Shown: positions 15,555 through 58,232 of the stretch, piece by piece | Layout: every line of letters starts with the position of its first letter | Numbering within the stretch: position 1 is the stretch's first letter | Origin: Candidatus Nomurabacteria bacterium | GTDB taxonomy: Bacteria > Patescibacteriota > Minisyncoccia > Phycocordibacterales > UBA5272 | Assembly: GCA_028286645.1 (NCBI GenBank) | Contig: JAQBRF010000004.1 | Span: forward strand, 18,830 to 82,829 | Direction of reading: 5' to 3' | Length of the DNA stretch: 64,000 bases | Translations under genes and position numbers: made by a program | The notes under the pieces: model-generated | The model's input: only the letters and a program-made list of their open reading frames with translations | What the model was told of the DNA's origin: nothing | Databases searched by the model: none

Positions 15555-15740
15555 ATGTCGGCAATAAAGAGACCTAAGTCCCCAGTTTTTCCTGAGGGAG
15601 ACGTGCTTCATATCGACGGACGGCTCCTCCAAACGCATAATGGACACAAAGCTACGCCTCCCCCAAAAGGAGGGGATGATTTTCCTGCTGTGCGAGTTTC
15701 TCCAAGCGGTCAAAGTGTCTACCGTTTCCGCCCGAAATGA
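15555..15740 (+). CDS. Hypothetical small protein, high-GC cassette
   Basis: Followed by the terminator GTGCGCAGCGCC-tac-GGCGCTGCGCAC + T7 at 15751-15786. Confidence 0.3.
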   Translation: MSAIKRPKSPVFPEGDVLHIDGRLLQTHNGHKATPPPKGGDDFPAVRVSPSGQSVYRFRPK

Positions 15741-15822
15741 AAGAGGCCAAGTGCGCAGCGCCTACGGCGCTGCGCACTTTTTTTAACTCGCCCTTAAATA
15801 CTCATTTGATATACTAACAACT

Positions 15823-28500: not shown

Positions 28501-28665
28501 CTTTTTACAAGCCTTAAAGAATTCAATGGTCCCATACATATTATTGTAGTCCGTAATAGCCAGAGAATTCATGTCCAAATCTTTTGCTTTTTGTACAAGG
28601 GCATCTATCTTCGGAAGTGATTTTAATAGGGAATAATGAGTATGGTTACGGAGGTGGGTTAACAT
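25543..28665 (-). CDS. dnaE: DNA polymerase III alpha subunit (PHP + polymerase core)
   Basis: PHP N-terminus HLRNHTHYSLL. DnaE core motifs. 1040 aa. Confidence 0.85.
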   Translation of the reverse strand: MLTHLRNHTHYSLLKSLPKIDALVQKAKDLDMNSLAITDYNNMYGTIEFFKACKKKNIKPIIGVEFSILYKERTFQIVLIAKDMMGYKNLMRITSLVNIDNPLHPILKDEVLLAHKEGLIVLSGGMWGDISNVLIKNTKEAEDRLDFYKKNFGNDFYLELNPQRNMEHADNMRRKTIELAHATGTPLVATWNTHYLSDQDISAHKTLFLIQGTSTSEEEYAHMFNKESYAFISHDAASKQFSDIPEAIENTNKIAEMVNLEIPLGSWVFPNITTKKTYNEDVRALAYGGLEVRCMELTDEVKTRLDYELKVIADKGYSPYFLVVYDLLRYARDHGILTNIRGSVAGSLTTYLLRITKCDPLAYKLPFERFLNPERPSAPDIDMDFSDTRRDEVIDYVRSKYGMDNVAQIGTFGTMMARGAVRDVARAMKFPYMVGDRISKLIPMPKQGFPVTIAGALNEVPELKEMYDNDREAQIILDMAQKVEGCARHISVHAAGTVISPAALWEWTPIQKDPKGGKIITQYDMYNIEDAGLLKFDFLGIRNLTILGDAIKIAKDKYNIDIDIEEIPLDDKKTFEMLSRGETMGLFQLNGSGMTKFLKELKPTTIFDINAMVALYRPGPLEMIPEYIARKHDPKLISFVDPRLEPILDQSFGVIVYQDDVMLIAIHLAGYSWLEADKLRKAMGKKIPAEMQDQKEKLLAGFVEHGLSTKKAQELWRLIEPFAAYGFNKAHAASYGRVAYQTAYMKANFPVAYMTSIMSNESGDTEKIAEIVSECKRMNITVLPPNINKSEGGFSIVKNDEGTEEIRFGLHTIKNLGVDIGDAIMEERVKSGPYKSFEDFIRRVTHKNLNKKSLEALTMCGALDEFAERGQILANMESILEFHKHVVKDNIMQDSLFAFDGASSFNMKPAPPVSNEQKLKWEKDLLGLFVSGFPLDPWKEKIIARGIDIDKIHHSIPDRKEVSIAVIIENIKTTNTKKGDQMALLKLRDYSGCIEVAVFPETYKNFKKKIIMDCPLVVRGKVSTRNGEKTIVIDEIKELK

Positions 28666-28765
28666 TGGTAAATTTTAACATATTAATCCCTATGTATTAT
28701 TAATCGTTAAAATAGAGGAATAGGTTGATTTCTATGATTGCCAACATTATTGTAAACTCTTAATA

Positions 28766-29404
28766 ATGAAAAAACTTGCCTTTAGTAGAGAGCTTAAAAA
28801 AATAGGAGTGATCGGAGTAGATGAAGTAGGAAGAGGGCCGCTTGCGGGACCTGTTACAGTATGCGCCACATATTTAATGGATCCATTATTAGTAAAAAAA
28901 GATCTTTTTCTTGATACCGTTAGAGATTCTAAAAAGATTAATAAAGCTTTACGCAATAGCATATATCAAACTATTAGAAATAAACGAACAAATATTTACC
29001 TAGTAAAATATGCTATAAAATCTAAAAGTGCTTCTTACATTGATACTCACGGAATTAGTAAAGCTATCCGGAATTGTGTCAAAGAGGTTATTTTAGATTT
29101 AAAGAAACAAGGAGTACCTGTATATAGCATTAAAGTTAACTTAGATGCGGGTTTAAAAGTGGCAATAGAAGGAGTAGTTGAAGAGAGCTATATAAAAGGT
29201 GATGAGAGGTATGTAGAGATAGCTCTTGCTTCTATAATTGCTAAGGAGTATAGAGATTCTTATATGAAAAGAATTGCTAAGGAGCATAGTAATTACTCTT
29301 GGGAAAGAAATGTAGGATATGGAACAAAAGAGCATAGAGAAGCGATTACAAAGTTTGGACCCTGCAAACATCATAGAAACAGTTTCCTAAAGGCATTTAA
29401 ATAG
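28766..29404 (+). CDS. rnhB: Ribonuclease HII
   Basis: GVDEVGRGPLAGPV motif. Confidence 0.8.
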   Translation: MKKLAFSRELKKIGVIGVDEVGRGPLAGPVTVCATYLMDPLLVKKDLFLDTVRDSKKINKALRNSIYQTIRNKRTNIYLVKYAIKSKSASYIDTHGISKAIRNCVKEVILDLKKQGVPVYSIKVNLDAGLKVAIEGVVEESYIKGDERYVEIALASIIAKEYRDSYMKRIAKEHSNYSWERNVGYGTKEHREAITKFGPCKHHRNSFLKAFK

Positions 29405-29639
29405 TTAGGTATTCCGGATAGTTAATAAATGTGACAGAAAAAAGGGCTTAAAAACAGATTATTAGCTCTTAGAATTAAATATTTAAAATAAAGGATGAAT
29501 TCAGCGGTTTTCTGCAATTTTTTAGCCATTGATTTAACTAAAAATCCTTTTTGCCATAAGGTTTTTTTAAGCGTCCTTTATCCCCAGTTTTTTCACATAT
29601 TGTGCACAGAATTTTATATACTTTGAATAAGTTAAATTC

Positions 29640-32600
29640 ATGAAAAAAGGTATTAAAAAATGTGGAGCAAAAGTTTGGGTTATTTTTTTTACATTTATTT
29701 TAATTTCATCTTTTTCTGCTAATAGCTCAGTTCATGCAGCCGAAAGCAAAATTCTCAATTTCCCGGTCTATCCATTACAAAGTGTAATAAGATTTATTTC
29801 ATTTAAAACATTTTCTTTGTATTCTGTTTCATCGCATGCATATGCCCTAGCTCATAACCTGCCACAATTTGCGCCAACGAAACTTTCAGCCATACCATCG
29901 ATTAAAACTGACGAGTTATCGCCTCTTTTAAATATAGGAAATAGTGCCAGCCAAAATACTGTCATATTATCAGATGCTGTCAATGAGCTTGGCTGCGAGT
30001 TAGTTAAATTTATTAGGATTAATTTATGCGCAGGTGAGAGTAACTTTGTGACGCCGAAATTAGCGATGAATAAAGTAGATAATAATGATTTAGTTATCGA
30101 TTCTGCTATTCCACGGCAAATTGCTATAGTAGGAGAAGAACTTCATTCGCCGCTTATTGAGTCAATAAAAAACTTTGCTTTAAATTTAAATACTGCAACT
30201 GTGCCAAAGCAGCAACCTTATGAAGAAATCCAAAATGATATTCCAGATCTCAAATTTAACTTTCCGCGCTTAGCAGAGTTTAGCCTTCTTCCTTTTAAGC
30301 AATATTCATCATTTGCAACAGGAGATAATAAAGCAAGCGCTCAAGGAATTTCGGTTCCAGTGAAGAAGAGTACACTGCCATTTTTAGACAGATTATCACT
30401 TTCTGTTTTCTGTAAAATAAAATCTTTATCAGGAGTCGTTGATGAAAACAGATGCAGTTATGATTCGCTTGCGGGAAACTTTTTAATAAACAATTTAGCA
30501 AATTTAAATGATGGCAATACTCAGCCATCAACACTAAATAGTAGTGGGGCCACTTCAACCTCAACAGGCTCCTCTAACACTCCTCAAGACACTTTTACAA
30601 ACTCTGGAAATATTTCAAAACCGGTTTATATAACTCAGTATCTCACTAAGTATATTACTCTTGCGGGTTCTCCGGGTCCTAAAGGTCCTTCTGGTGTAGA
30701 TGGAAAAGATGGCCTAGATGGAATGAGTGGTCAGAATGGAGCTAACTCACAAGGAGGATTCGGAGGATTTATTAATCCATCAAGTTCTTATGTTGCGCCG
30801 ACTCCGTATGTGGCGCAAAGCCTTGTGGGGATTTCTACTATTGGATATTTGCGTGATACTACGATTGAGTATGCGAAGTTTAATTATGGTACAGCTAATA
30901 ATCTAAGCCTGATAAGCCCTACTGTAGATAACGGCGTGTTTAACGGAACGAATATATTTAATGGAGGCGTACGATTTAATGATAATGTAGACATAAACAT
31001 CCTAACTGCCACCTCGAGTAATTTCCTAAATTCAAGCACGACAAATTCGTTTGCAAATAATTTTTCTGCAGTAAATTCTATACTTGGGGATGCAATCATA
31101 ACAAATGCGAATGTAACTAATTCGACTACGACAAATCAGTCTACAACTAATTTAAATCTTACAAACGGTACTACAAGTAATCAATTTATTAATAATCTTG
31201 CGGTAATTAATTCCACAACGACAAATGCGAGCACCACAAATAGCTACATAAGTAATTTATTAAATGATAATAGTACCACTACCAACTTGGTAGTTACAAA
31301 TGCAAGCACAACGAATGCGACTACTACGAATTCTTTTATTTCTAAATTATGGTCCACTCTTGCTAACATTACTGATCTAATAATTGGCAATGCCACAACA
31401 ACTAATCTATTTGCTGCGAATGCGACTTCCACCAACTTCTTTTCAACTCTTGCCCGCATCACGGGTCTCACAGTAGATAATTCAGTTACAACTAATGCAA
31501 CGACTACAAATGGCTACATATCTAATTTAACTAATGATAATGGAAATATCGGAAATCTTGTCGTAACTAATGCAAGCACAACTAATGGCACCACGACAAA
31601 TAGTTACATAGCAAATTTAGCAAATACAAACGCGGTGATTACCAATGCTACGACCACAAATTCTTTCATTGCACGATTGTGGTCCACTTTAGGCGATATA
31701 ACAGGATTAAATACAGTTAATTTGACCGCTACGAATGCTACTAGTACAAATTTCTTTTCAACCCTTGCCCGCATCACGGGTCTTACTGTCGATAATTCCG
31801 TTACGACTAATGCAACCACAACAAATAGTTTTATTGCAAATCTGACTGCAGATAATGCTGTAATTAACAATATCAATTTTGGCAGCGCTTCATCTACAAA
31901 CTCGACGTCGACAAATGGTTTTATTGCAAACCTAACGATGAATAACGGAACATCAACGAACTTCTTTACTCAAAACCTTTCCGTTGGAAATACAAATGTT
32001 AGCGGCAATCAAACAATTAATGGTACGTTCACTGTTTTAGGTACTACCACACTCGGAGCAGCAACGACAATTGTGGGGAATATACTCTTGGGGACAAGTA
32101 CCTCGAATTTTATAACAGTAAATGGCCTATTTAATTCTCATCTGGTTCCCGCGCAAAATATTACATACGATCTGGGTTCCCCATCATTTTATTATAGGAC
32201 TTTATATGTTGATACCATTACCGCAAATACCGTTTCTGCTGTTAGCTCTACGATCAATGGAACAACAAATAGTTCATTTTCAATAAACGCAGATAATGTT
32301 TCCGCAGACGCAGAAGATTCTACCCTTGTCTTTTTTAGAGGATTAGTTACTCCGAATGCAGTTATTAGGTGGAATTCCATTTCGAAGAGATTGGAGGCGA
32401 ATATGTCTATTAATGTTATGAATGAAACTCCTGTAACCGGTTCCACCACTTTTTCAGTACAGGGAGGGGCTGGTCAGGGAACAACACCGTTATTTAAGCT
32501 GCTAGATAATTCTGAGAACACTCTTTCATACTTTGACCAAAATGGCTCATTAGGAATTGGGACTAGTACGATCACCTCAGGGGCGAAGGTGGATGTATGG

Positions 32601-35600
32601 GGTAATTTAAATGTAGGAACTTCTTCAACCCCGACACTGTTTGCTAACACGGCCACAGGAAATGTGGGGATTGGGACTTCAACTCCTGGCTCTACTCTCA
32701 CAGTTGCGGGCACTGGGTTATTTACCAGCAACCTTTCAACTCTTGGCACTTTAGGGGTCAGCGGACAGACTACCTTAACAACAGCATCCTCAACTGCATT
32801 TACTGCCACGACTCTCTTTTCCACAACGGGGACTATTGCAAACTTAATAAATACTAATGCAACCTCATCTAATTTATTTGCAAGTCTTGGGACGCTGGGA
32901 GCCTTAACGGTAACTGGTCAAACTGTTTTATCTAACGCTTCTACCACCAACCTAACAGTCTCTGGAAACCTATACAGTACCAATCAAATTACCACTACAG
33001 AAACAGTAACTAACTCTTCCACTACCAACCAAACAACTTCTGGTAACACCTACTTCTCCGGATTAACCGCAGGTTCTATCCCATTTATTGGTGGAGGTGG
33101 CTTACTAAGCCAGAACAATGCAAATCTATTCTGGGACAATACGAATGCGAGGTTAGGGGTGGGGACGACGACGCCGGGAGCACTTCTAACCGTTTCTTCT
33201 TCTACCGCAACGGGAACTACTGGATTATTTAGCATAGCGACTTCATCAAATCCTCTGCTTAGTGTGCTGGCAAATGGAATTATTCAATTGAAAACTGGCA
33301 GGGTTAATAATGGAGTGCAATTTATAGGTGGAGTGGGAGGAAGTTTAGAATTTACTAACTCTGCAAGCGGCGTATTTTCTGCACAAGGTAATGGTCTAGG
33401 ACAAGTGACATGGAATGGAACAGAAGTAGATTTAGGAAATAACTTCGGCGTAGCGGGAAGATTCAATTGTGTGTCGGGAAGCTGCCGAACAAGCTTTAAC
33501 AGTACAAATTTTCCTGTAGCCACGGCGCAAAACTTTTTCAAGTCTAATGCAGATGGAAACATCGGAATGATCATTGCTCAGAATTCTGTATCACAAACAG
33601 GAGACTTATTTCAGTTAACAGATTCAGCCGGGACATCTGTACTCTCTACATTTTCAGCATCTGGCAGTTTAGGTATCGGTTCCACCACTCCCGGCTCCAA
33701 ACTGTCTATAACCGGAACAAGCGGAGCCACTACGCCGCTATTTACTGTCGCTTCCTCTACAAACTCTGTAATATTTAATGTGCTTGCTAATGGAAATGTA
33801 GGAATTGGTACTACAACACCAGATCAGAAACTTGTCGTTGAGGGGAATAACCCAGCAATTGCGATTAACAACACCGGATCTGGAAGTGGAAATTTCCCTA
33901 TATTTATATTAAGACATGCTGGCGCAGACAAATCATATTTATATTGGGACAATGCAAATAGTTTTACAAAATTTAGTTCTGCAGGAGCCTTGCGGTTTGA
34001 TACAAATGGCTTAGGAAATACAAATATGACTCTTCTTGCTAATGGCAACCTCGGCATCGGTACCACCACTCCCTCCACCAAACTCTCCGTTGCCGGCAAT
34101 GGCCTCTTCGACGGAGTTGTAACAGCATCTAACTTCGTAGCAACGTCGACCGCACCTTCCACATTTACTAATGCAACTATTACAAATGCTTCTACCACAA
34201 ATACTACCGGGACAGGACTTACATTTACTAATGGATTATTCTTAAATTCGCTTGCTTCTAACGGTACATTAAATATTACAGGTCAAACTGTCCTAGCTAA
34301 CGCTTCCACCACTAACCTCTCAATCTCAGGAAATCTTTATGCACCTAATTTTCTTGGAACAACAGGATCCTTTAGTACTTTAAGCGCAACGAATGCTTCT
34401 ACTACTAACTTTACTAATTCAAACAATTCATACTTCTCCGCCCTCACCGCAGGCTCCATCCCATTTATTGGTGGAGGTGGACTACTAAGCCAGAACAATG
34501 CAAACCTATTCTGGGACAATACGAATGCGAGGTTAGGGGTGGGGACTACGACACCCATAGCTAAGCTAAGCGTATCCGATGCAACTAATTATGGAAACGT
34601 AACTGCTGATCAAACAAAGTTCGGAAGCTATTATTTATATTCTCCCCAAGCTGTTATTACAGGAACTTCTACTGCTCCAGCAGGAACGTATATTGGAGTT
34701 AATAGCGATTTAAATGGAAGCAATATTTCACTAACCTCTTCTAGCAATTTCATAGGGACTAATTTAAGTTCTATTAAAGGGTCTGTGTCAGGCTCTCCCG
34801 TGGTTAATCTAAATCTTAATGCAAATACGGGACTGGGCTTTGTATCTACTGCTGCAATCGAAGGAAATGCAAATGTAACTCCCGTTTATATCAGCGGAGA
34901 TCAATTATTCTTTAATTCCTATGGAGGACAGTTTACAAACACTAGTGGAAATGGAGTATCTACGACTCCAACATCAAATATATATGGTATTAATGCATCA
35001 TCAAATAGTAATTTGGCGAGAGGATCTCATTATGGAGGTAATTTTATCGCTGCAGGAACAGCGTCAAGTAATTATGGGGTAAGAGTTGCAAGCGTATCCG
35101 GAGCTGGAAGTAATTATGGATTAATGATTGATACTGTGGCGGCATCTTCTACTAACTATGCGCTTTATTCAGGTGCATTAGCGCAAAGCTATTTTGCGGG
35201 CAACGTCGGAATTGGCACGCTGTCTCCTACGGGGAAGTTTTCGATTATCACTTCACCAAGCGGTATGATAGACGCTCCAGCGATGGATATACTATCGACT
35301 CATGCTATCGGTTCTGTTACGACCTCGGGGGTGCGTACGTTTACTATGGCAAGTTCGACATATAATCCTTCAGCCACTCTTAGTAATAGTAGCGTTTCAG
35401 GAACTAATGTAATTATTGCAAACGGAAACACTCAGAATATTAATTTAAACAACTTCACATTAAGTGACGTAACAGGAGTTGGAGCGAGAAACGCTCTAAC
35501 AGTAAATGGCTATACTGCAACTCTTACGGGTAGTCCAGTAATAAATGATACAAATCCTGATGGCCTAGGCCAAGTGATAACAGTTGCGGGTTTTAGTGGA

Positions 35601-38600
35601 AACGTTAGCGTAACTCCAGCTGTTACTAGTCTTGTAAATATTGGGAATTTCAATTCCATAGCAGGTGAGTTCAATAATACTAGTTCTGATGGCGGTTCTA
35701 ATTTATCTTCTCTTGCCTATGGCATCAAAGTATCTAACACGGCTACTCTTGCTACGGCTAACGCTAGTGATCTTTATGGCGGATTCTTTAATGTTTCTGG
35801 TACAGCCACTAATGCCTACGGCCTTAAGGTAAATGTAATCGGGTCTACAAATAATCATGGTATGCTCATAAGCTCAGTTTCAGGAGGAGCTAGCAATTAT
35901 GGTTTGCGTATCGACACCGTGGCCGCATCCTCTACTAACTATGCGCTTTATTCAGGTGCATTAGCGCAAAGCTATTTTTCAGGCAATCTTGGTATCGGTA
36001 CAACTTCTCCAACTGAAAAACTCTCCGTTGCCGGCAACGGCCTATTTGACGGAGTAGTAACAGCATCAAATTTCTTTGCGACTTCCACCACCCCATCAAC
36101 ATTTATAAATGCTTCCACTACTAACCTAACAGTCTCAGGAAACCTATATAGTACTAACCAAATTACAACCACAGAAACAGTAACTAATTCTTCCACTACC
36201 AACCAAACAACTTCTGGTAACTCCTACTTCTCTGCTTTAACTTCCGGCTCTATCCCATTCATTGGTGCAGGAGGATTACTATCCCAGAACAACTCTAATC
36301 TCTTCTGGGACAACACGAATGCGAGGTTAGGGGTGGGAACGAGTACGCCAGTTAACGCTTTAACTGTGGTGGGTAATGGATTATTAACAGGAAGCTTAAC
36401 AGTAGGGAACGGAAGTACTAATGCCATAGTAGATATTAATGGTCTTTCATCAAATAGTGCTTTGCTTAGATTCTTGCGAAGCGGTACGGAAGCAGGAAGA
36501 ATAACATTTGCGAATAGTGCAGATATGACTTTCCAACTTGGTTCTAGTCCAGCAGAAATGATGAGAATTACTTCTGCGGGTAACATTGGAATCGGTTCCA
36601 CCACTCCTGGATCAAAGCTTTCTGTTACTGGTGCTTCTGGCAGTATTGCACCATTATTTACAGTCGCCTCATCAACGAACTCTGTACTATTTAATGTATT
36701 AGCGAATGGAAATGTTGGGATAGGAACGACCACCCCCCTTGCTGCTCTCCATGTCACAACCCAAGTGGCCGATATTGCTTACTTTAATAGCTCCATAAGT
36801 CCGCTGGGAAGATTATTTATAGCAGCACGTGGCGGACCAAATGGAGAGATAGAAATAGGAAACCATGATGGAGCTTACAGATTGCTGGACGTTCAGGGTT
36901 CGATACTTACATTTGGTGTGAGTGGTACTGAAAAAATGAGGATTGACGCATCTGGTAATATTGGTATCGGATCGACAACTCCAACGGCGAAATTCACAGT
37001 GTCCGGAGATAATGGAGCCGTGTCATCAGACAGCTTGGTGGTTTTCGGAGATAATTTAAATTCTGTAACAGGAGCTACCACAGCGAAACTTACAATTGGT
37101 AATATAGACGGTAATAGTGAACTTTTGATTGGGCAAGACGGAACACATAACTTGGTAAATGCTTGGATATATAATGCGACAGCGGCTAGTGGTTACGGAC
37201 TTATCGCAGGATATGGCGGAAATAATAATATAGTTCTCCAAAGGGACGGAGGAAATGTTGGAATAGGAGCTACCACTACTCCATCTGCTCGTCTTTCTAT
37301 AAAAGGAATAGGCACTACTACTGGTATCAATTTTCAGACTACTAACTCAAGCAATGTTCCGTTGTTTAGTATTTTAGATAATGGAAACGTGGGGATTGGA
37401 ACTTCTAGTCCAATAGCAAATTTACAAATTGGAAACACTACATCAGCCTCAACCGCTTCCCCAGTCACTTTATCACTTGGAGGAACCTTCAGTTCTGTCG
37501 CTGGGGCTAACTTGAAATTAAAATTATTCGATAGCGGAGCAAACGTCTACGGTCTCGGAGTATCAGCGAATTCTCTCGATGTATCTTCAGCGGCGGCATT
37601 AAATTTTTATACAAACGCAAGTACCACTCCAAGCATGACAGTGGCTGCGACAGGAAATGTTGGAGTTGGAACAGGCGCTCCGGTTTCGACCTTAAACGTA
37701 AATCAGTTAGCTGGAACTACCAAAGGCATATCCATTACAGGAGATGAAACATTTGCATCAGGTAATGGGTCTATAACATCTGGAGTGAGAATTGCCCTTG
37801 GGGTATCAAGAGCTAATAATCGTCAATTATGGCTTGGAGATATTGCCGCTTATGGAAGCTCGACAGCGGGACTTTTTAGATATAACACAGGGCAAACAGG
37901 CTGGGGAGGATTTGATGTGGTGAGTGGCGATGGTTCTAGTAGATTTCTTACAGTTGCGGGTAGTGACACTTCTAATGTTGGAATAGGATACAACGGATCA
38001 CCTGTTGACCCGACTTTATACACAGGAAAGTTAAATGTATTTTCTTATAACGATTCAGCTGCTTCTACTACCTTAAACTTAAGACATTTCGGAACAGCAA
38101 GTGGAAATTATTTAGATATAAAAAATAGCGCTGGAACCTTGCTGGCGACATTTACAAATGCTGGAAATATGGGAATAGGTGTAACATCTCCGACCTCGCT
38201 TCTATCGATTGCGTCTACTACAGCAAGTGGAGCCACAGGATTATTCTCAGTAGCCAGCTCATCTTCTATTTTTAATATACTTGCTAATGGAAACGTAGGG
38301 ATAGGTACAACAACTTCGATTCAAAAACTTGATGTAAATAGTTCCACATTTTTAGCAAACTCCGTTAATGGAGCATACGTAACAAGTGATAGTGCAGTAA
38401 CTAACAGCGCATATCTGGCTTCCAATGCTTATTATAATGGATCTAGTTGGCAGAAACCTTTTGCTCTTAAATCGGCCATATTTGGTTCAGCTGGTTCAGG
38501 AGCGTCGAAGGGGTTTTATATATATGGATCTGAAAGCACAACAGCCGGCACAATCTCAGACTTTGAAGAAAGGTTTAAGGTCCTTACTACAGGAAATGTA

Positions 38601-41600
38601 ATTATGGGAGTGGGTGCTGGAGGAGGCAACGTCGGCGTCGGCACCACCACCCCCTCCACTAAACTCTCCGTTGCCGGCAATGGCCTATTTGACGGAGTGG
38701 TAACAGCATCAAACTTTGTTGCTACTTCAACTACTCCTTCTACATTTATAAATGCTTCTACTACTAACCATACAAACTCTGGTAACAATTACTTCTCTGC
38801 TTTAACTTCCGGCTCCATCCCATTTATTGGTGCAGGCGGCTTACTAAGCCAGAACAATGCTAATCTGTTTTGGGACAACACTAATGGGAGGTTAGGGGTG
38901 GGGACGACAACGCCAGGATCCCTCCTTACTGTCTCATCTTCCACAGCAACAGGGACTACTGACCTCTTCTCGGTTTCTACATCATCACCAATATTTAACA
39001 TACTTGCGAATGGCAACATCGGAATCGGGACAACAACCCCGACAGACAAACTTTTTGTTTCTGGTACGTTTTCAGCGGGAACAAGTACGCTAAATAACCT
39101 TATTGTTACAAATACTAGCACATCAACATTTGCTGGTGCGGTACAAATTACAAAATCTACAGTGGGACCTACTACCGTATTAACATTGAAAAATGGCCAA
39201 TTTAATGTAGGAGATACTTCAGATATACTTTTCTCTCACGGCAACTTGCAAGCTTTTTCAAAAATTAGCTCATCACTTCCCGGTAGTAATCAGACCCATC
39301 TAGCCTTCTACACTAGTTCAAATACAAACTCTTTAGTTGAAGCGATGAGGATTGATGGAAATGGAAAGGTGGGAATAGGAACATCAAGCCCAGCTAATTT
39401 ACTTCACATATCTGGAAATGGCGATAGTCGAGTGATGTCTGAAACAACAGGGGCAGATACTGTAGGCACTGCGGGTTTTGTTATGAAAGGAGGAGGAACA
39501 AACGCACAATGGCAAATATTTACTAACCGTTCAGATCTTGCCGGAGCTGCAGATAATTTTGCCATTCGTAAAAATGCCGGCACGACAGGAGTAAAGTTGG
39601 TCATTCAAGATAACGGAAATGTCGGTATTGGAACAACCACACCTATTTATTCCTTAGATGTAGTCGGTAATATTCGTACGGCTGGTGCTGCTTCTGGTTT
39701 CATTATGAATAACCGAGCGACAAATCAGACTTCAGCACAATGGTATAGTCCAACAGCTGGAGAAACAAGGCTCTTTGACCATGTTGCAGGATTGGATCGA
39801 TTTACTATAAATTCGTCCGGAAGCGTAGGTATTGGAACTACTACCCCTGGTAACACTTTAAGCGTTGAAGGTTCGGGTAACGTAGCTAGATTCGGCACAT
39901 CGGCAAATGCATTTTCATTCATTCAGGTAGATTCTAATAATGCAACAATTAAGAATGTATTCGGAACGGATATTAGCGGTACTCCCACAGGATTCTTAGG
40001 AACTCTTACCAATCATGATCTCATTCTTCGTACAAATAATACAGAAAAGGTACGTATAACAACTGGTGGAAATGTCGGTATTGGAGTAAGCCCCGCTCTC
40101 GCAAGACTACAAGTAAACGATGGTGGCGGTACTGCTGCGAGTGAAATTTTAAGTTTGCAAACAGGTTACGCAGCTAACAGCGCCCAAAAAGCCTTAACCT
40201 GGAGAGATGGGGTAAATATTACAGGCCAAATAGACACAAGATACGATGGCACATCAATCGATATGGTCTTTGGACATCTTTATAATTCTGGTTATAACAC
40301 AACGGATAGAATGGTGATTAAAGGTACAGGAAATGTGGGTATCGGAACGCTTGCGCCGTTTAGTAGACTACATGTAGCCCAAGATGTAACACAATATTCT
40401 ACATCGGGAACTTTTGCTCAATTGGAAGTTACGGGTGGAACAAATATTAACCAAAGACTGGCTATTGGATATAACACATCTACGAACGTCGGTTTTATTC
40501 AAGCTATAATAAATGGAGTTTCATTTCAGCCGCTTGCTCTCCAGCCGCTGGGTGGTAATGTCGGTATTGCGACATCAACCCCAGGACAAGCTCTTGCTGT
40601 AGTTGGTACCATCCAGCAATCTGCCGCAAAGAGCTGTGCTCTTTCATCGAATGCCTCAGGAGATATCATTTGTACGTCTGACGAGCGTTTGAAAGATATT
40701 GCTGGAATATATAATGGAGGCATCGGACAATTGCTTTCGATTAATCCAATCAGATTCAATTATAAAAATGAATCATACCAGCACGTTGGATTCTCTGCGC
40801 AAAATATCGCATCGGTTCTTCCAGAAGGTGCTCCAATCCAATCTAATGGATTCTATGGATTAGACTCAAATGCAGTACTTGCTCTTACACTTAATTCCGT
40901 GAAAGATATAGCTCATAGAATCGATTTCTCAAATGCTCCAAACTCTGCATCCCTTATTATAGATAACTTAGGAGGAATCATGGCTAAAAACTTTATGACT
41001 GACACCACTTCGTCAGTTGCAGAAAGGTTCCCAGCAGAAGAAGCGGTGGATGTAGGAACTGTAGTGGCATTTGGAGACTCATCATATTCATTTAATGACA
41101 TTCATGCATCATCTACTGACACATACAGCATGTCAGGTGTTAGAAAGGCTCGCACTCAAGGAGAAGCAATTGGTGTGGTCACATCAAATGCCGGACTTAT
41201 AACAGGAACATCAAGCAATGGCGGCGTACCGGTGGTATTTTCTGGACGCACTGTCGTTCAAGTTACGAATGAATATGGCCCAATTCAAAAAGGAGATTAT
41301 TTAACACTTTCTACTACTACTCCAGGAAAAGCTACGAAGATGTCAGGAGAAGGACAATCTCTCGGTGTAGCGGTATCCGCTGATAATGGTTCTGGCAGAA
41401 TCCTTGTAGTACTTAATACTGGATATCAAAAGGTTGATACTAACAGCCGGGCAATTTCTACAAGCGGAATGCTTACCACTGGAAACTTGGATCTTAATGC
41501 CAATGGCGTAGCGATTTTGAATATTAAATCTCTTGCGTCCGCAAACGGCACTTGGTCTATCAATGAAGATGGGCGTATCATCGCAAAGATTCTTTGTCTG

Positions 41601-41894
41601 GAAGATGTATGTATTGATAAAACACAGCTTACAAATCTTCTTAATAATTCTGGCCAAGGCGGAGCTCCTGCTTCTATTCAAAACTCTACTTCAACTCCAT
41701 CAGGGGATGTATATGCAAATGATGTAAATCAGGGAACTCTATATTCCTCATCCACTCCTTCAGGCACGCATAGCGGAATGGTAGCCGGCACTTCTACGGA
41801 GGCCATGCCAGCAATTGATACAGCCCCAATTGTAAGTGAACCGGCAAGCGGGGGTGTATCAGTTGCGCCCACAGATGGGGCAGTAACACCATAA
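29640..41894 (+). CDS. Giant secreted fibre-like surface protein (4084 aa). Signal peptide, collagen-like Gly-X-Y stretch, many N/T/S-rich repeats (GNVGIGTTTP-type), C-terminal intramolecular chaperone/peptidase S74-like domain
   Basis: A single uninterrupted ORF. Signal peptide MKKGIKKCGAKVWVIFFTFILISSFSANSSVHA. Collagen-like GSPGPKGPSGVDGKDGLDGMSGQNGANSQGG. Repeats LLSQNNANLFWDNTNARLGVGTTTP recur x4 or more. C-terminal SDERLKDI...NPIRFNYKNESYQHVGFSAQNIASVLPE matches the endosialidase/tail-fibre auto-chaperone. Confidence 0.85.
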   Translation: MKKGIKKCGAKVWVIFFTFILISSFSANSSVHAAESKILNFPVYPLQSVIRFISFKTFSLYSVSSHAYALAHNLPQFAPTKLSAIPSIKTDELSPLLNIGNSASQNTVILSDAVNELGCELVKFIRINLCAGESNFVTPKLAMNKVDNNDLVIDSAIPRQIAIVGEELHSPLIESIKNFALNLNTATVPKQQPYEEIQNDIPDLKFNFPRLAEFSLLPFKQYSSFATGDNKASAQGISVPVKKSTLPFLDRLSLSVFCKIKSLSGVVDENRCSYDSLAGNFLINNLANLNDGNTQPSTLNSSGATSTSTGSSNTPQDTFTNSGNISKPVYITQYLTKYITLAGSPGPKGPSGVDGKDGLDGMSGQNGANSQGGFGGFINPSSSYVAPTPYVAQSLVGISTIGYLRDTTIEYAKFNYGTANNLSLISPTVDNGVFNGTNIFNGGVRFNDNVDINILTATSSNFLNSSTTNSFANNFSAVNSILGDAIITNANVTNSTTTNQSTTNLNLTNGTTSNQFINNLAVINSTTTNASTTNSYISNLLNDNSTTTNLVVTNASTTNATTTNSFISKLWSTLANITDLIIGNATTTNLFAANATSTNFFSTLARITGLTVDNSVTTNATTTNGYISNLTNDNGNIGNLVVTNASTTNGTTTNSYIANLANTNAVITNATTTNSFIARLWSTLGDITGLNTVNLTATNATSTNFFSTLARITGLTVDNSVTTNATTTNSFIANLTADNAVINNINFGSASSTNSTSTNGFIANLTMNNGTSTNFFTQNLSVGNTNVSGNQTINGTFTVLGTTTLGAATTIVGNILLGTSTSNFITVNGLFNSHLVPAQNITYDLGSPSFYYRTLYVDTITANTVSAVSSTINGTTNSSFSINADNVSADAEDSTLVFFRGLVTPNAVIRWNSISKRLEANMSINVMNETPVTGSTTFSVQGGAGQGTTPLFKLLDNSENTLSYFDQNGSLGIGTSTITSGAKVDVWGNLNVGTSSTPTLFANTATGNVGIGTSTPGSTLTVAGTGLFTSNLSTLGTLGVSGQTTLTTASSTAFTATTLFSTTGTIANLINTNATSSNLFASLGTLGALTVTGQTVLSNASTTNLTVSGNLYSTNQITTTETVTNSSTTNQTTSGNTYFSGLTAGSIPFIGGGGLLSQNNANLFWDNTNARLGVGTTTPGALLTVSSSTATGTTGLFSIATSSNPLLSVLANGIIQLKTGRVNNGVQFIGGVGGSLEFTNSASGVFSAQGNGLGQVTWNGTEVDLGNNFGVAGRFNCVSGSCRTSFNSTNFPVATAQNFFKSNADGNIGMIIAQNSVSQTGDLFQLTDSAGTSVLSTFSASGSLGIGSTTPGSKLSITGTSGATTPLFTVASSTNSVIFNVLANGNVGIGTTTPDQKLVVEGNNPAIAINNTGSGSGNFPIFILRHAGADKSYLYWDNANSFTKFSSAGALRFDTNGLGNTNMTLLANGNLGIGTTTPSTKLSVAGNGLFDGVVTASNFVATSTAPSTFTNATITNASTTNTTGTGLTFTNGLFLNSLASNGTLNITGQTVLANASTTNLSISGNLYAPNFLGTTGSFSTLSATNASTTNFTNSNNSYFSALTAGSIPFIGGGGLLSQNNANLFWDNTNARLGVGTTTPIAKLSVSDATNYGNVTADQTKFGSYYLYSPQAVITGTSTAPAGTYIGVNSDLNGSNISLTSSSNFIGTNLSSIKGSVSGSPVVNLNLNANTGLGFVSTAAIEGNANVTPVYISGDQLFFNSYGGQFTNTSGNGVSTTPTSNIYGINASSNSNLARGSHYGGNFIAAGTASSNYGVRVASVSGAGSNYGLMIDTVAASSTNYALYSGALAQSYFAGNVGIGTLSPTGKFSIITSPSGMIDAPAMDILSTHAIGSVTTSGVRTFTMASSTYNPSATLSNSSVSGTNVIIANGNTQNINLNNFTLSDVTGVGARNALTVNGYTATLTGSPVINDTNPDGLGQVITVAGFSGNVSVTPAVTSLVNIGNFNSIAGEFNNTSSDGGSNLSSLAYGIKVSNTATLATANASDLYGGFFNVSGTATNAYGLKVNVIGSTNNHGMLISSVSGGASNYGLRIDTVAASSTNYALYSGALAQSYFSGNLGIGTTSPTEKLSVAGNGLFDGVVTASNFFATSTTPSTFINASTTNLTVSGNLYSTNQITTTETVTNSSTTNQTTSGNSYFSALTSGSIPFIGAGGLLSQNNSNLFWDNTNARLGVGTSTPVNALTVVGNGLLTGSLTVGNGSTNAIVDINGLSSNSALLRFLRSGTEAGRITFANSADMTFQLGSSPAEMMRITSAGNIGIGSTTPGSKLSVTGASGSIAPLFTVASSTNSVLFNVLANGNVGIGTTTPLAALHVTTQVADIAYFNSSISPLGRLFIAARGGPNGEIEIGNHDGAYRLLDVQGSILTFGVSGTEKMRIDASGNIGIGSTTPTAKFTVSGDNGAVSSDSLVVFGDNLNSVTGATTAKLTIGNIDGNSELLIGQDGTHNLVNAWIYNATAASGYGLIAGYGGNNNIVLQRDGGNVGIGATTTPSARLSIKGIGTTTGINFQTTNSSNVPLFSILDNGNVGIGTSSPIANLQIGNTTSASTASPVTLSLGGTFSSVAGANLKLKLFDSGANVYGLGVSANSLDVSSAAALNFYTNASTTPSMTVAATGNVGVGTGAPVSTLNVNQLAGTTKGISITGDETFASGNGSITSGVRIALGVSRANNRQLWLGDIAAYGSSTAGLFRYNTGQTGWGGFDVVSGDGSSRFLTVAGSDTSNVGIGYNGSPVDPTLYTGKLNVFSYNDSAASTTLNLRHFGTASGNYLDIKNSAGTLLATFTNAGNMGIGVTSPTSLLSIASTTASGATGLFSVASSSSIFNILANGNVGIGTTTSIQKLDVNSSTFLANSVNGAYVTSDSAVTNSAYLASNAYYNGSSWQKPFALKSAIFGSAGSGASKGFYIYGSESTTAGTISDFEERFKVLTTGNVIMGVGAGGGNVGVGTTTPSTKLSVAGNGLFDGVVTASNFVATSTTPSTFINASTTNHTNSGNNYFSALTSGSIPFIGAGGLLSQNNANLFWDNTNGRLGVGTTTPGSLLTVSSSTATGTTDLFSVSTSSPIFNILANGNIGIGTTTPTDKLFVSGTFSAGTSTLNNLIVTNTSTSTFAGAVQITKSTVGPTTVLTLKNGQFNVGDTSDILFSHGNLQAFSKISSSLPGSNQTHLAFYTSSNTNSLVEAMRIDGNGKVGIGTSSPANLLHISGNGDSRVMSETTGADTVGTAGFVMKGGGTNAQWQIFTNRSDLAGAADNFAIRKNAGTTGVKLVIQDNGNVGIGTTTPIYSLDVVGNIRTAGAASGFIMNNRATNQTSAQWYSPTAGETRLFDHVAGLDRFTINSSGSVGIGTTTPGNTLSVEGSGNVARFGTSANAFSFIQVDSNNATIKNVFGTDISGTPTGFLGTLTNHDLILRTNNTEKVRITTGGNVGIGVSPALARLQVNDGGGTAASEILSLQTGYAANSAQKALTWRDGVNITGQIDTRYDGTSIDMVFGHLYNSGYNTTDRMVIKGTGNVGIGTLAPFSRLHVAQDVTQYSTSGTFAQLEVTGGTNINQRLAIGYNTSTNVGFIQAIINGVSFQPLALQPLGGNVGIATSTPGQALAVVGTIQQSAAKSCALSSNASGDIICTSDERLKDIAGIYNGGIGQLLSINPIRFNYKNESYQHVGFSAQNIASVLPEGAPIQSNGFYGLDSNAVLALTLNSVKDIAHRIDFSNAPNSASLIIDNLGGIMAKNFMTDTTSSVAERFPAEEAVDVGTVVAFGDSSYSFNDIHASSTDTYSMSGVRKARTQGEAIGVVTSNAGLITGTSSNGGVPVVFSGRTVVQVTNEYGPIQKGDYLTLSTTTPGKATKMSGEGQSLGVAVSADNGSGRILVVLNTGYQKVDTNSRAISTSGMLTTGNLDLNANGVAILNIKSLASANGTWSINEDGRIIAKILCLEDVCIDKTQLTNLLNNSGQGGAPASIQNSTSTPSGDVYANDVNQGTLYSSSTPSGTHSGMVAGTSTEAMPAIDTAPIVSEPASGGVSVAPTDGAVTP

Positions 41895-41941: not shown

Positions 41942-42139
41942 ATGGTAGTACGAATGAGACATACACGGGCGCATACCGCCAATCGCCGAAGTCATCACGC
42001 GCTTAAGGCTTCTAATTTAGTGACTTGCAAGAACTGTCAGGCTTTTAAGGCGCCGCATAAGGTGTGTGATGCTTGTGGATTTTATAAAGGTAAAAAAGCA
42101 GTGGCAGTTAAATCTAAAAAACAGGTAACAAAGGCATAA
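41942..42139 (+). CDS. rpmF: 50S ribosomal protein L32
   Basis: RRSHHALKA...CKNC...[13 protein letters not shown] pattern. Confidence 0.75.
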
Positions 42140-42227: not shown

Positions 42228-43124
42228 ATGAGTACTCGCCACATCGCTCGAACCCTTGCATTACAAACACTCTTCGAACTTGATATGAAAGGGGAATTAG
42301 GTATTTCGCCAAATGAAGTAGAAGGTATAATTGCAAGAAATAGGGATGAGGCTGGAGAAGCGGTTAAGGATCTTTCGTTTGCGAAAGAGGTAGTAACTAA
42401 CGCTCTTTCTAGACGAATTACAATTGATGACATTATTACTCGGGCTGCGCCGGATTGGCCTCTTGATAAAATAGGAATAGTAGACAGAAATATTTTAAGG
42501 CTGGGATTAACTGAACTCCTTTTTGGCGATCGTACTCAGGTGCCTCCTAAAGTGGCTATAGATGAAGCTATAGAGCTTGCGAAAGCATTTGGAGGAGAAA
42601 CTTCCGGCCGATTTGTTAATGGAGTATTAGGGGCAATTTACAAAGAAATGGGTGAGCCAGAAAAAGGACAAACTACGAAAAGCAAGAAAGAGTATTTTGA
42701 AAGCGGAAAAAGAGAATTACTCGCTGGTGCCGTAGTATGCGCTCATCATAATAATAAAGTTCAAGTTGCTCTCGTTCATGACGTATTTGGGTATTGGACT
42801 TTGCCTAAGGGTCATATCGGTCTTGAAGAAAAAGGCGAAGAGGGGGTGGTAAGAGAAATAAAAAAAGAAATTGGATTATATATTACAGTTCTCGAAAAGC
42901 TAGGAGAGAATCAGTACATTGCCAATAAGCCTGATCAAGGGAAAGTAGTTAAGCATGTAAATTATTACCTGGCTACATCAGACTATACCGATCTTCAATT
43001 AGAAAAAAAGGGCGGACTAGACGAAGCGAAATGGTTTAGTGAGATAGATGCTGTAAATTTACGGGTTTATGATGACATAAAACCTCTTATAAGGAATGCT
43101 ATTGATAAGGTAAAAAATGTGTAA
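42228..43124 (+). CDS. nusB: NusB-like N-terminal domain fused to a C-terminal NUDIX hydrolase domain
   Basis: NusB-like residues 1-150 (ARTLALQTLFELD ... RFVNGVLGAI). Nudix box GHIGLEEKGEEGVVREIKKEIGL at residues about 195-220. Confidence 0.6.
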   Translation: MSTRHIARTLALQTLFELDMKGELGISPNEVEGIIARNRDEAGEAVKDLSFAKEVVTNALSRRITIDDIITRAAPDWPLDKIGIVDRNILRLGLTELLFGDRTQVPPKVAIDEAIELAKAFGGETSGRFVNGVLGAIYKEMGEPEKGQTTKSKKEYFESGKRELLAGAVVCAHHNNKVQVALVHDVFGYWTLPKGHIGLEEKGEEGVVREIKKEIGLYITVLEKLGENQYIANKPDQGKVVKHVNYYLATSDYTDLQLEKKGGLDEAKWFSEIDAVNLRVYDDIKPLIRNAIDKVKNV

Positions 43125-44232: not shown

Positions 44233-44463
44233 TTATTTTTAGAAACTAATTATTAACAATAAGCCCTGGCACACATTCATACAAGTAATCTTGATAGAAA
44301 CGTTACAGTTGCTTACTTTATGTCTATTCTACAACATTACCACTCTTTTGTCCATCAATTCCTATAAAAGGCTTGTTTATAAAGGGAACTTGACTTTTTA
44401 ACATAAAAGTAGCACAATATCTTACGAGCTTCGTAAACCTGTAGTACCTCTGGAGGAGGTCGC

Positions 44464-44625
44464 ATGTCGGCGAACATTTGCACCCAAGGCGAACACGAAA
44501 AGAAGGATGAGGTGGGGGGCAAGACCCCTTATCACTGTGAGGTCTCTGACCTCTATGCGCGGTATTTTTTGGCGGTATGTGCCGCCTGCCTCCTCGCGGA
44601 TCACCTTCTTCCGCATGTCGGTTGA
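44464..44625 (+). CDS. Putative small Cys/His-containing protein (53 aa) in an isolated high-GC patch. Not in the ORF track because it is under 60 aa
   Basis: Strong SD GGAGGAGGtcgcATG. Translation MSANICTQGEHEKKDEVGGKTPYHCEVSDLYARYFLAVCAACLLADHLLPHVG. Followed by the bidirectional terminator at 44650-44680. Confidence 0.3.
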   Translation: MSANICTQGEHEKKDEVGGKTPYHCEVSDLYARYFLAVCAACLLADHLLPHVG

Positions 44626-44649
44626 GCTACTCATCCGAGGTAGCCAAAA

Positions 44650-44680
44650 CAACAAGGTCCCGCTCTAGCGAAGCGGGCCT
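44650..44680 (-). terminator. Terminator of the ABC-F gene (GCCCGCT..AGCGGGaC + T-rich tail); bidirectional
   Basis: Seen in sequence. Confidence 0.5.
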
Positions 44681-46156: not shown

Positions 46157-46246
46157 AAATTAAATAAAGGCCCTCATGGGCGTTTGTTGCCTAATTGTAC
46201 AATAATTTTACATTTTTGTCACATTCATTATAATGAATAGATCCCT

Positions 46247-58157: not shown

Positions 58158-58191
58158 TCGGCGCCTCCTTCATTGTAAGCAGAGAAATGTT

Positions 58192-58228: not shown

Positions 58229-58232
58229 TATC

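Follow-up and report, generated by a model that had tools for sequence, protein, structure and literature searches.

Locus and conservation of the fibre gene

The 64,000-nt stretch of DNA analysed here (the window) comes from a MAG of Candidatus Nomurabacteria, a member of the CPR, which fits the small-genome bacterium proposed in an earlier sequence-only reading. It carries a single giant open reading frame without internal stops that takes up 12,255 nt, or 19%, of the window, and the length and extent claimed in that reading were found to be exact (Table 1). The product is annotated by NCBI as 'hypothetical protein JWN37_428'. Scans for promoters and terminators near the gene gave background signals only and were uninformative.

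Table 1. Coordinates of the fibre gene, its neighbours and the parts of its product within the window.
Feature	Position	Strand	Basis or remarks
dnaE	25543-28665	-	neighbour
rnhB	28766..29404	+	upstream neighbour, conserved in orthologous loci
fibre gene MDB5260197.1	29640..41894	+	ATG start, 4084 aa plus stop
leader, aa 1-35	29640..29744	+	hydropathy scan; Lys-rich N-terminus, hydrophobic TM-like aa 8-26, then VHA-AE
N-terminal ectodomain, aa 36-342	29745..30665	+	blastp against L029, L003, P0074/79/86/87
collagen-like trimer 'neck' (putative), aa 343-369	30666..30746	+	9 G-X-Y triplets; orthologue conservation
post-collagen segment, aa 370-440	30747..30959	+	conserved; GGFGGF...GISTIGYLRDTTIEY
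Asn/Thr-rich block, aa 441-800	30960..32039	+	composition, repeat family D2, self-similarity
shaft, aa 801-3638	32040..40553	+	motif count, PDB and PHROGs matches, repeats
S74 intramolecular chaperone, aa 3639-3762	40554..40925	+	Pfam core aa 3680-3729; last capping loop included
SDERLK, aa 3680-3685	40677..40694	+	predicted autocleavage N-terminal to Ser3680; Ser/Lys dyad
module B, aa 3778-4008	40971..41663	+	beta-barrel, phi29 gp12 autochaperone fold; extension NANGVAILNIKSLASANGTWSINEDGRI..CLEDVC
SVAERF, aa 3792-3797	41013..41030	+	degenerate G2 cleavage motif; Asp to Ser
C-terminal tail, aa 4009-4084	41664..41891	+	Ser/Thr/Gly/Pro-rich, zero basic residues
rpmF (L32)	41942..42139	+	downstream neighbour, conserved in at least 24 orthologous loci

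As stated before, the gene lies next to dnaE, rnhB and rpmF; a NusB-NUDIX fusion and RNase III are further neighbours. It is separated from rnhB by 236 bp and from rpmF by 47 bp. Each flanking gene examined was a housekeeping gene, in agreement with the earlier remark that phage structural genes do not flank it. No phage genes were found within the 64-kb window, and PHROGs matched nothing in the window's two blocks of unusual composition.

The gene order dnaE-rnhB-FIBRE-rpmF-nusB was kept in at least 24 species-level Patescibacteria genomes, so the check for orthologues across the lineage, suggested earlier, was strongly positive. Complete orthologues of 2796, 3080, and 3327 aa were found between rnhB and rpmF/nusB, and complete copies at this locus ranged from 2796 to 4084 aa. 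Across orthologues module B showed 42-59% identity and the neighbouring proteins 60-90%, while the middle of the fibre could not be aligned; the shaft and the C-terminal cassette thus diverge far more quickly than the neighbouring genes. The fibre gene is a positionally conserved orthologue and not a prophage gene. Because its position is conserved in at least 24 species-level genomes it is neither of prophage origin nor an assembly artefact at the level of the locus, and the cellular origin proposed earlier is supported by the housekeeping flanks and the slot shared with relatives.

Domain organisation of the fibre protein

Most of the protein is rich in Asn, Thr, Ser, and Gly and low in charge, and a composition count confirmed the Asn/Thr/Ser-rich character described before. 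The protein contains 113 N-x-S/T sequons compared to 109±8.6 expected from composition, and since this is not above the composition level we make no claim of glycosylation. Besides Cys8 of the leader there are 10 cysteines, arranged as five close pairs 5-14 residues apart. Together with the single N-terminal TM-like segment these pairs suggest that the protein is extracytoplasmic.

A hydropathy scan identified residues 8-26 as the sole hydrophobic TM-like segment of the protein. The leader may serve as a signal peptide or as a signal anchor of N-in/C-out topology. Of the signal peptide read from the sequence before, the N-terminal hydrophobic segment is present, but it may instead be an uncleaved membrane anchor. 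Homologues have one TM segment at the equivalent position, which in some is preceded by a cytoplasmic HTH domain: in L003/P0070, L029, P0079, and P0087 a transposase-type HTH (HTH_23, E 9e-9) is followed by one TM helix and the same neck and fibre. L053, P0123, P0139, and P0171 carry another N-terminal helix-turn-helix-like segment, which resembles MerR/excisionase by eye only.

Residues ~241-342 of the ectodomain, including the pair Cys258/Cys272, are conserved among orthologues. A Pfam search of the ectodomain (aa 36-342) gave no match, and neither did a search of the N-terminal 420 aa against a database of 5.8 billion proteins; homologues of the N-terminal region were found only through loci and proteins reached by way of the C-terminal module. 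An AF2 model of aa 36-440, built on a seven-sequence alignment, had a pLDDT of 30 and was unusable. As the N-terminal domain is without detectable relatives in these searches, the mode by which the N-terminus would be anchored is a guess.

The ectodomain is followed by nine uninterrupted G-X-Y triplets, where ~1.5e-5 such runs are expected from composition, and six homologues have 6-8 triplets at the equivalent position. The collagen-like stretch reported previously is thus present, but its score against Pfam Collagen (PF01391) was 14-16.7 bits and below the gathering score of 27.2; NCBIfam SclB matched this part faintly. The Asn/Thr-rich block consists of short degenerate repeats (TN-A/S-T-TTN-x-F/Y-I-x-NL) that are spaced by multiples of 15 nt in the DNA. 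Searches of these repeats and of the N-terminal part with Pfam and NCBIfam yielded no significant match.

All but one of the 23 capping-loop motifs (GNVGIGTTTPxxKLxV) lie in the shaft, together with a super-repeat of ~80 aa that is present four times (DNA family D1). The recurring GNVGIGTTTP repeats had been noticed before, and their number is far above chance: the motif G[NSKT][VILM]G[IV][GA] occurs 23 times in the protein, whereas 200 shuffled versions averaged 0.14 and never exceeded 2. The last ~450 aa ahead of the S74 domain contain more charged residues and are a candidate for the fibre tip. When residues 3111-3359 were searched as a single sequence against the PDB, the Bdellovibrio protein Bd2133 was matched (8ond, E 2e-7; 8ojn, 3e-5). 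A family profile matched 8ond at 1e-16 and also 8ojn, 8oml, and 8ol4. Judged by these sequence matches the shaft is homologous to the solved Bdellovibrio MAT fibres, which was not part of the earlier reading.

The S74 domain was recognised by Pfam Peptidase_S74 (PF13884) over aa 3680-3729 with 28.3 bits against a gathering score of 22. This search of the C-terminal region (~3600-3800) had been proposed earlier, and the hallmark strings named at that time, SDERLKDI, NPIRFNYK, and HVGFSAQNIASVLPE, were all found. The limits of the domain were drawn from homologues whose protein stops there. The SDxxxK dyad corresponds to Ser3680 and Lys3685, and its Ser, Asp, and Lys are conserved without exception in 21 aligned relatives; the mechanism predicted for cleavage at Ser3680 is adopted from the work on MAT fibres (PMC10769870). 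A family profile matched the S74 structures 8jov, 7dc3 (MYRF), and 6f45, whereas phmmer with the S74 region alone gave no match in the PDB, i.e., S74 structures were reached by profiles only. The domain had been described as C-terminal. The match is significant and the dyad intact, but 322 residues follow it; many relatives end 14-22 aa past S74.

These residues include module B (~230 aa), which was found to have the fold of the phi29 gp12 C-terminal barrel (Peptidase_G2 type), followed by a highly conserved extension. Module B is a second autochaperone-type domain beyond S74 and was absent from the earlier reading. The phi29 cleavage motif S|DFAEYF (S691|D692-F-A-E695-Y-F) corresponds to ADLAEnF in the family consensus and to SVAERF in the window protein. 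Of 71 relatives, 63 retained D-x-A-E-x-[FYW], and it was lacking in both loci where S74 abuts module B. Unlike the phi29 gp12 autochaperone (3GQH; PF11962), the window copy no longer carries the Asp, stands behind S74 and bears the extra conserved extension of ~70 aa with a Cys pair. It was missed by PF11962 even at E<=10, and Pfam and NCBIfam searches of module B gave nothing significant. PF11962 weakly matched 10 of 40 relatives (best 8e-4), and a family profile matched 3gqh at E 0.003. Module B comprised 1312 clusters at 50% identity. When 2.9 million IMG/VR viral contigs were scanned with the module-B alignment, no relative was confirmed, which, given the narrow degenerate patterns of the scan, is a weak negative.

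Comparison with known fibres and a model for the function

The closest precedent is the MAT (mosaic adhesive trimer) fibre of Bdellovibrio bacteriovorus (Bd3182, S74 type; Bd2133, 8OND; Caulton et al. 2024), which serves in prey recognition. MAT fibres are surface-exposed, processed by S74 and bind prey glycans, and the substitution S782A in Bd3182 prevents cleavage (PMC10769870). Like these, the window fibre is chromosomal, is predicted to be exported and has a shaft resembling phage tail fibres, with a repeated capping-loop motif (V-G-x-G-x-x-x-P-x-x-x-L type) and a C-terminal S74 domain with SDxxxK; in both, family members differ in a mosaic C-terminal cassette that can be swapped between them, and the bearer lives, in the CPR case probably, on other bacteria. 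MAT fibres are ~1000 aa long and belong to a diderm predator, whereas the window fibre is four times longer with its 4084 aa and belongs to a monoderm-type CPR cell. It also differs in its collagen-like neck, in its block of Asn/Thr repeats, and in that S74 precedes a gp12-type barrel instead of closing the protein. Its N-terminal region appears unrelated or is unrecognisable. MAT fibres begin with a signal peptide and a conserved beta-rich base of ~130 aa; the window fibre has an N-terminal hydrophobic segment, which the ectodomain without a Pfam or database match follows. CPR is unmentioned in the text and three text supplements of the MAT paper (PMC10769870).

The S74 domain resembles those of phages (K1F endosialidase, the T5 pb1 L-shaped tail fibre; PF13884) in its above-threshold match, its intact dyad and its place directly after a fibre with capping loop. 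It differs from them in its cellular setting and in being internal, with residues beyond it. An internal S74 is also found in eukaryotic MYRF, and the family profile matched 7DC3 at E 5e-7. In MYRF cleavage frees an N-terminal transcription factor and the anchor is C-terminal to S74, while the anchor of the window protein is N-terminal and its S74 domain would be extracellular, 3600 residues from the anchor. A short G-X-Y triple helix close to the anchored end is also found in trimeric surface filaments such as streptococcal Scl and Bacillus BclA, but in the window fibre the nine triplets score below threshold, LPXTG is absent and the collagen forms a small neck instead of the stalk. Finally, the giant membrane and surface proteins of the predator Vampirococcus lugosii (up to 4163 aa; PMC8080830) are also from CPR and were proposed to be fibrous surface proteins for host attachment; they bear WD40, PKD, integrin, and fibronectin-type domains, and no S74/tail-fibre architecture was reported.

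We consider it fairly probable that the gene is a vertically inherited cellular gene encoding a giant homotrimeric surface fibre of the phage tail-fibre type, of the same kind as Bdellovibrio MAT. Its function is most likely that of a trimeric, self-processing, membrane-anchored adhesive fibre ~0.2 µm long, with which the tiny, probably host-dependent bacterium would grip other cells. Going by the domain families and homologues, we infer trimerisation, cleavage, and host binding as follows. The N-terminal hydrophobic segment would direct Sec export, and the N-terminus would probably be kept at the cytoplasmic membrane. S74 and the trailing gp12-like barrel would register three chains from the C-terminus, and the short collagen-like neck would set the chain register at the fibre base. 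By homology to the solved MAT trimers, the shaft with its capping loops would fold as a triple beta-helix, and the length of ~0.2 µm is extrapolated from ~550 Å of Bd3182. A cut by the Ser3680/Lys3685 dyad, predicted from the motif, would release or uncap a C-terminal fragment of 405 aa and expose the distal tip. By analogy with MAT, the bared tip may then bind a structure on the host or partner surface, probably a glycan. A role in host attachment has been suggested before for giant surface proteins of CPR (PMC8080830). As the shaft is homologous to MAT fibres that bind prey glycans, the idea of host attachment gains what may, by analogy, serve as an experimental precedent.

Alternative explanations and wider meaning

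A fibre of the same architecture could instead be a structural part of the envelope without a specific host receptor, such as a brush of the glycocalyx or S-layer type, a fibre for biofilm or cell-cell cohesion, or a shield or spacer against phages and grazers. The low-charge, Asn/Thr/Ser/Gly-rich composition would suit such a role, the positional conservation resembles that of a core envelope gene, and Pfam and NCBIfam searches recognised no tip domain of lectin or adhesin type. We nevertheless think this unlikely. The protein has its homologues among adhesive fibres and the receptor-binding proteins of phages, not among S-layer proteins, S74 maturation typically bares a binding tip (PMC10769870), and the rapid, mosaic variation of shaft and C-terminal cassette beside conserved flanks is as expected of an interaction surface.

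The exact length of 4084 aa derives from one short-read MAG assembly, and it is very unlikely that it is an artefact of repeats being mis-joined, collapsed or expanded or of genes being fused. The internal DNA repeats, 67-89% identical, reach 86-89% over 118-242 nt; an independent Logan contig, 100% identical to positions 26654-33044, breaks within internal repeat D1, and for the majority of relatives in public genomes the contig ends partway through the gene, all of which would fit an artefact. The repeats are, however, diverged rather than identical, and the Logan assembly agrees exactly with the gene over its first 3.4 kb; Logan run SRR13312974 contains the same sequence. In other assemblies this locus, or the slot next to it, carries complete single ORFs of 2796-4454 aa, and one such ORF was present on 21 contigs from different samples. 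Fusion of several genes by misassembly was ruled out by the complete orthologues. Given these ORFs and the exact 3.4-kb match, the existence of the giant gene is safe and the repeat count is the only uncertain point.

It is highly improbable that the fibre is mainly a sensor, passing contact or tension through the single TM helix to gene regulation in a ToxR-like manner. The relatives that join HTH_23 via one TM to the neck and fibre, and those with the other HTH-like N-terminus seen by eye, would fit such a role. The window protein itself is without a cytoplasmic domain: only 7 residues precede its hydrophobic segment, and a gap of 236 bp separates the start of the gene from the end of rnhB. 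Release of a transcription factor as in MYRF was ruled out for the window protein, which has no cytoplasmic domain and its S74 at the far extracellular end.

That the gene encodes a phage tail fibre and is merely chromosomal, either left over from a prophage or serving a resident phage or tailocin, is hardly credible. PHROGs tail-fibre families did match (phrog_9942 at 1e-19; also phrog_33119), and chaperones of the S74 and gp12 types are well known from phages. Against this stand 64 kb without phage genes, the rnhB-rpmF slot with its short spacers, filled in at least 24 species, the N-terminal export or anchor segment with the paired cysteines, and the lack of a close module-B relative among the viral contigs; prophage origin as such was ruled out by the housekeeping flanks, the absence of phage genes and the conserved synteny.

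An adhesive surface fibre bears on a largely obscure part of CPR/Patescibacteria biology, namely how hosts are found and held, for which type IV pili are the sole well-supported device in the literature searched. The fibre locus is a concrete and conserved second candidate for CPR host attachment. A bolder proposal, which we regard as quite unlikely, is that the gene occupies a dedicated fibre locus, dnaE-rnhB-[fibre]-rpmF-nusB ... ABC-F-[second fibre slot]-DHH, kept throughout a Patescibacteria clade, and encodes the main organelle by which this clade captures hosts, made of cell-length, self-maturing fibres with S74 and G2-type autochaperones in series that in sister versions are wired by one TM helix to a cytoplasmic DNA-binding domain. 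If true, the locus would be of a new kind, a contact-sensing adhesin-regulator that reports host contact directly to the chromosome.

The receptor-binding architecture common to phages, Bdellovibrio and the window fibre suggests that dwellers on bacterial surfaces converge on, or exchange, a toolkit, and the predicted self-cleavage at Ser3680 offers a simple biochemical handle. The fibre family is large yet nearly invisible in annotation, with its 'hypothetical' label, no Pfam model for module B and breaks at contig ends. For this reason host-range determinants of CPR have probably been overlooked systematically in metagenomes.

Architecture of the fibre gene and its relation to MAT fibres

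The sequence-only reading had described a single giant ORF encoding a secreted fibre with a collagen-like segment, recurring loop repeats and an S74 chaperone, and all the sequence features it listed for the fibre were found. The ORF (29640-41894 (+)) runs through 4084 codons with zero internal stops. It was identified by exact look-up as NCBI MDB5260197.1, encoded on a MAG contig of 514 kb and alone in its 90% identity cluster. Pfam Peptidase_S74 matched aa 3680-3729 with 28.3 bits (gathering score 22), and the catalytic dyad, Ser 3680 and Lys 3685, lies within SDERLK. The collagen-like stretch consists of nine unbroken G-X-Y triplets (~1.5e-5 such runs expected by chance) and scores under the Pfam collagen threshold. 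The motif G[NSKT][VILM]G[IV][GA] occurs 23 times, compared to 0.14 expected from shuffles. Cys8 of the leader aside, the fibre has ten cysteines, all in five tight pairs, a pattern that fits and is compatible with an exported, disulphide-stabilised protein.

Parts of the window fibre (in aa) and features of related loci (L) and proteins (P)
Feature	Position or size	Remarks
Lys-rich start and sole TM-like hydrophobic segment of the protein	aa 1-35	
Region of unknown fold	aa 36-342	final 100 residues, including Cys258/Cys272, kept in orthologues
Collagen-like neck	aa 343-369	
Conserved segment after neck	aa 370-440	
Short Asn/Thr-rich repeats	aa 441-800	
Shaft	aa 801-3638	capping-loop motifs and four copies of a ~80-aa super-repeat
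S74 domain	aa 3639-3762	
Module B	aa 3778-4008	
Ser/Thr/Gly/Pro tail	aa 4009-4084	
Cys pairs	119/130, 258/272, 1277/1282, 3666/3678, 3986/3991	
Complete orthologue P0079	3327 aa	on 21 contigs
Complete orthologue P0074	3080 aa	GCA_040384045.1
Complete orthologue P0086	2796 aa	
Second-slot fibre, L003	1946 aa	
Second-slot fibre, P0087	4454 aa	L083/L084
Second-slot fibre, L029	3613 aa	probably
HTH_23/HTH_32 fusions	L003:5123-10963; L029:386-11227; L085:6001-15984 (P0079); L083:6001-19365 (P0087)	transposase-type, E 9e-9
23S_rRNA_IVP/bAvd-like genes	L083:3469-3819 (-); L085:799-1176, 4581-4955 (-); L087:4649-5011 (-)	

Searched by plain sequence against all PDB chains, the full-length fibre matched two entries, Bd2133 8OND (E 2e-7) and 8OJN, both from the study defining the mosaic adhesive trimer (MAT) fibres of Bdellovibrio bacteriovorus. 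A profile of CPR relatives around the S74 region matched four MAT structures (8OND at 1e-16) as well as the S74 structures 8JOV, MYRF 7DC3 and 6F45. MAT fibres are trimers resembling phage tail fibres, are exposed on the predator surface and bind glycans with their tips; 13 of the 21 end in S74 with the SDxxxK motif, and Bd3182 was found to cleave itself at S782, which is abolished in S782A (PMC10769870). Their capping loops have a consensus (PMC10769870) of the same kind as the motif repeated in the window fibre. The family was widened to Micavibrio, Omnitrophica and Uabimicrobium in a supplementary list, and there is no mention of CPR in the text or its three text-form supplementary files (PMC10769870).

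The C-terminal chaperone cassette

In many relatives only 14-22 residues follow S74 before the protein ends, while the window fibre and a subset of relatives carry a ~230-aa domain, module B, after S74. Module B of the window had no match in Pfam or NCBIfam. Its BFVD matches were "preneck appendage protein barrel" and tail-fibre C-termini, and the family profile matched 3GQH (E 0.003) via GKIRKAEKGEKIIGVISETAGFVLG in phi29 gp12 and SGVRKARTQGEAIGVVTSNAGLITG in the window. Pfam Peptidase_G2 ("IMC autoproteolytic cleavage domain") matched weakly in 10 of 40 family members and did not match the window copy. The BFVD, 3GQH and Peptidase_G2 matches agree and are consistent with a gp12-like module B.

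Xiang et al. in 2009 (Mol Cell) reportedly described the gp12 domain as an autochaperone removed after trimerisation by a cut between S691 and D692. The phi29 genome reads S691-D-F-A-E-Y-F at this position, and D-x-A-E-x-[FYW] was found at the equivalent place in 63 of 71 related ORFs (consensus AAD[LIV]AEnF). The window fibre reads S-V-A-E-R-F there, and the Asp of the G2-type motif is therefore lost. The motif is also lost in L035 and L036, the two loci where a true S74 directly abuts module B. Our reading is that the fibre carries two phage autochaperone types in series. Judging from only these three cases, S74 may be the active protease here, with the G2-type barrel kept for trimerisation/cap.

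The most conserved stretch in the whole family is aa 3940-4008 (nt ~41457-41663), an extension beyond the gp12-like barrel that lacks a counterpart in phi29 gp12. The family sequence is GNLDLNANGVAIxNIKSLASANGTWSIDENGRI..CLEDVCIDK with an invariant Cys pair, and the structure model has low confidence in this extension.

Proposed assembly and alternative roles

We infer that the fibre would be exported and anchored by its N-terminus. One TM helix lies at the equivalent place in homologues, some of which carry a cytoplasmic helix-turn-helix (HTH) ahead of it, implying an N-in/C-out topology. Judging by the usual roles of these domain families, the trimer would be nucleated from the C-terminus by S74 and module B, and the collagen-like neck would fix the register at the base. 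Homology to MAT trimers supports a shaft that would form a triple beta-helix. Given the observed motif, self-cleavage N-terminal to Ser3680 would free a 405-aa fragment. By analogy with MAT fibres, the tip thus exposed would attach to a molecule on the host surface; the sequence-only reading had named the fibre a candidate host-attachment or surface-layer organelle. The chief rival reading, a non-specific role in the envelope or as a brush, is rather unlikely.

A length artefact is improbable and possible only for the repeat count. An independent Logan contig was identical (100%) over 26654-33044 and then ends within D1, the DNA family of the shaft super-repeat; the fibre's internal DNA repeats are diverged (67-89% identity). 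Since independent assemblies have single giant ORFs at the locus, doubt about the assembly is settled in principle, with the repeat number less secure. Most public copies of the family start mid-gene at a contig start (L002-L081). Short-read assemblies break systematically inside fibre genes (L002-L081; L001 against window position 33044), and the family is therefore under-counted and mis-annotated.

A second conserved slot, from ABC-F(-) to a DHH/DHHA1 gene, holds paralogous giant fibres in other genomes and is empty in the window (46156-46247), where the two genes are 90 bp apart. In sister fibre genes one TM helix connects a cytoplasmic HTH to the same neck, followed by the giant extracellular fibre. 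Another common N-terminal segment, MerR/excisionase-like by eye alone, was seen in L053, P0123, P0139 and P0171. The HTH-fused homologues would suit a sensor or regulator, a role that is highly improbable for the window copy, which is without any cytoplasmic domain and cannot work so.

Genomic context and distribution of the family

The fibre is flanked by dnaE, rnhB and rpmF, as the sequence-only reading had stated, and further by a NusB-NUDIX fusion, RNase III, an RRM protein and ABC-F. The reported absence of flanking phage genes held throughout the 64 kb, and Pfam assigned 30 flanking ORFs to housekeeping/metabolic families. Two compositionally odd blocks (~10000-15800 and ~57400-61700) had no match in PHROGs; both have raised G+C (about 46% vs 35-40% around) and short ORFs only, none with Pfam-style annotation. 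Several ORFs of the first block resemble small multi-pass membrane proteins.

An intron-containing tRNA gene adjoins the second block, which could therefore be an integrated element. The anticodon loop of this tRNA gene (~62472-62821 (-)) is interrupted by a group I intron with its core at 62521-62804 (Rfam RF00028, 70.8 bits). ARAGORN called zero tRNAs in 64 kb and one after in silico intron removal, and the anticodon depends on the splice junction. An adjoining 114-aa ORF (62895-63239 (+)) has Cys-x-x-Cys/His motifs and looks like a candidate HNH homing endonuclease.

A scan with the module-B alignment of one genome per GTDB species found 173 loci. The best 80 of these were nearly all labelled Patescibacteria/CPR, with a few Bdellovibrionales and others, and module B almost always forms the end of a very large ORF, usually cut by the contig start or the 10-kb flank. 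In at least 24 loci the giant ORF is followed in window order by rpmF, NusB-NUDIX, RNase III, RRM(-) and ABC-F(-), with neighbour proteins 60-90% identical to those of the window. Three complete orthologues also show the upstream side: SBP_bac_5(-), dnaE(-) and rnhB precede the fibre, and rpmF and/or nusB come after it (the L088 locus stops one gene past the fibre). This evidence favours a cellular gene over a phage gene, and a prophage origin is very unlikely. Since phage genes are absent, synteny is shared and complete orthologues are in place, the fibre gene is cellular, vertically inherited and conserved in position.

The NusB-NUDIX gene (42228-43124 (+)) joins a NUDIX hydrolase domain to NusB in one 298-aa protein and is kept in all syntenic relatives examined (61-75% identity). 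The P0079 genome has an extra 1616-aa gene between rpmF and nusB, right after the fibre (L085:16545-21395 (+)), with just faint Pfam hints (EPTP and DUF6242_C) and no counterpart in the window. Small 23S_rRNA_IVP/bAvd-like four-helix-bundle genes recur adjoining the fibre locus in relatives, one with a weak match to bAvd, a diversity-generating retroelement accessory protein; no equivalent was seen in window 44233-44680.

Alignment between orthologues is confined to the C-terminal cassette and the N-terminal third (31-52% identity), and the middle of the shaft is not alignable between them. Three or more cassette versions exist: one with G2 alone, one with S74, a spacer and G2, and one in which S74 is joined directly to a degenerate G2. 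Conservation is far higher in the flanking genes than in the fibre. As judged from these alignments, the fibre is mosaic and evolves fast, as phage receptor-binding proteins and MAT fibres have been described to do.

Phage-like adhesive fibres of cellular origin, processed by S74 and borne by a bacterium living on other bacteria, have been known since 2024, and some CPR relatives carry the NCBI label "tail fiber domain-containing protein". Within the literature that could be searched, the new elements are the occurrence of the fibre family at a conserved syntenic locus in CPR, its giant size, its collagen-like neck, the cassette with S74 and G2-type chaperones in tandem, and the sister genes fused to an HTH. 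Bd3182 measures about 550 Å for roughly 780 residues (PMC10769870). Scaling from it, the ~3240 shaft residues suggest a fibre of roughly 0.2 µm. This predicted length is close to the diameter of CPR cells.
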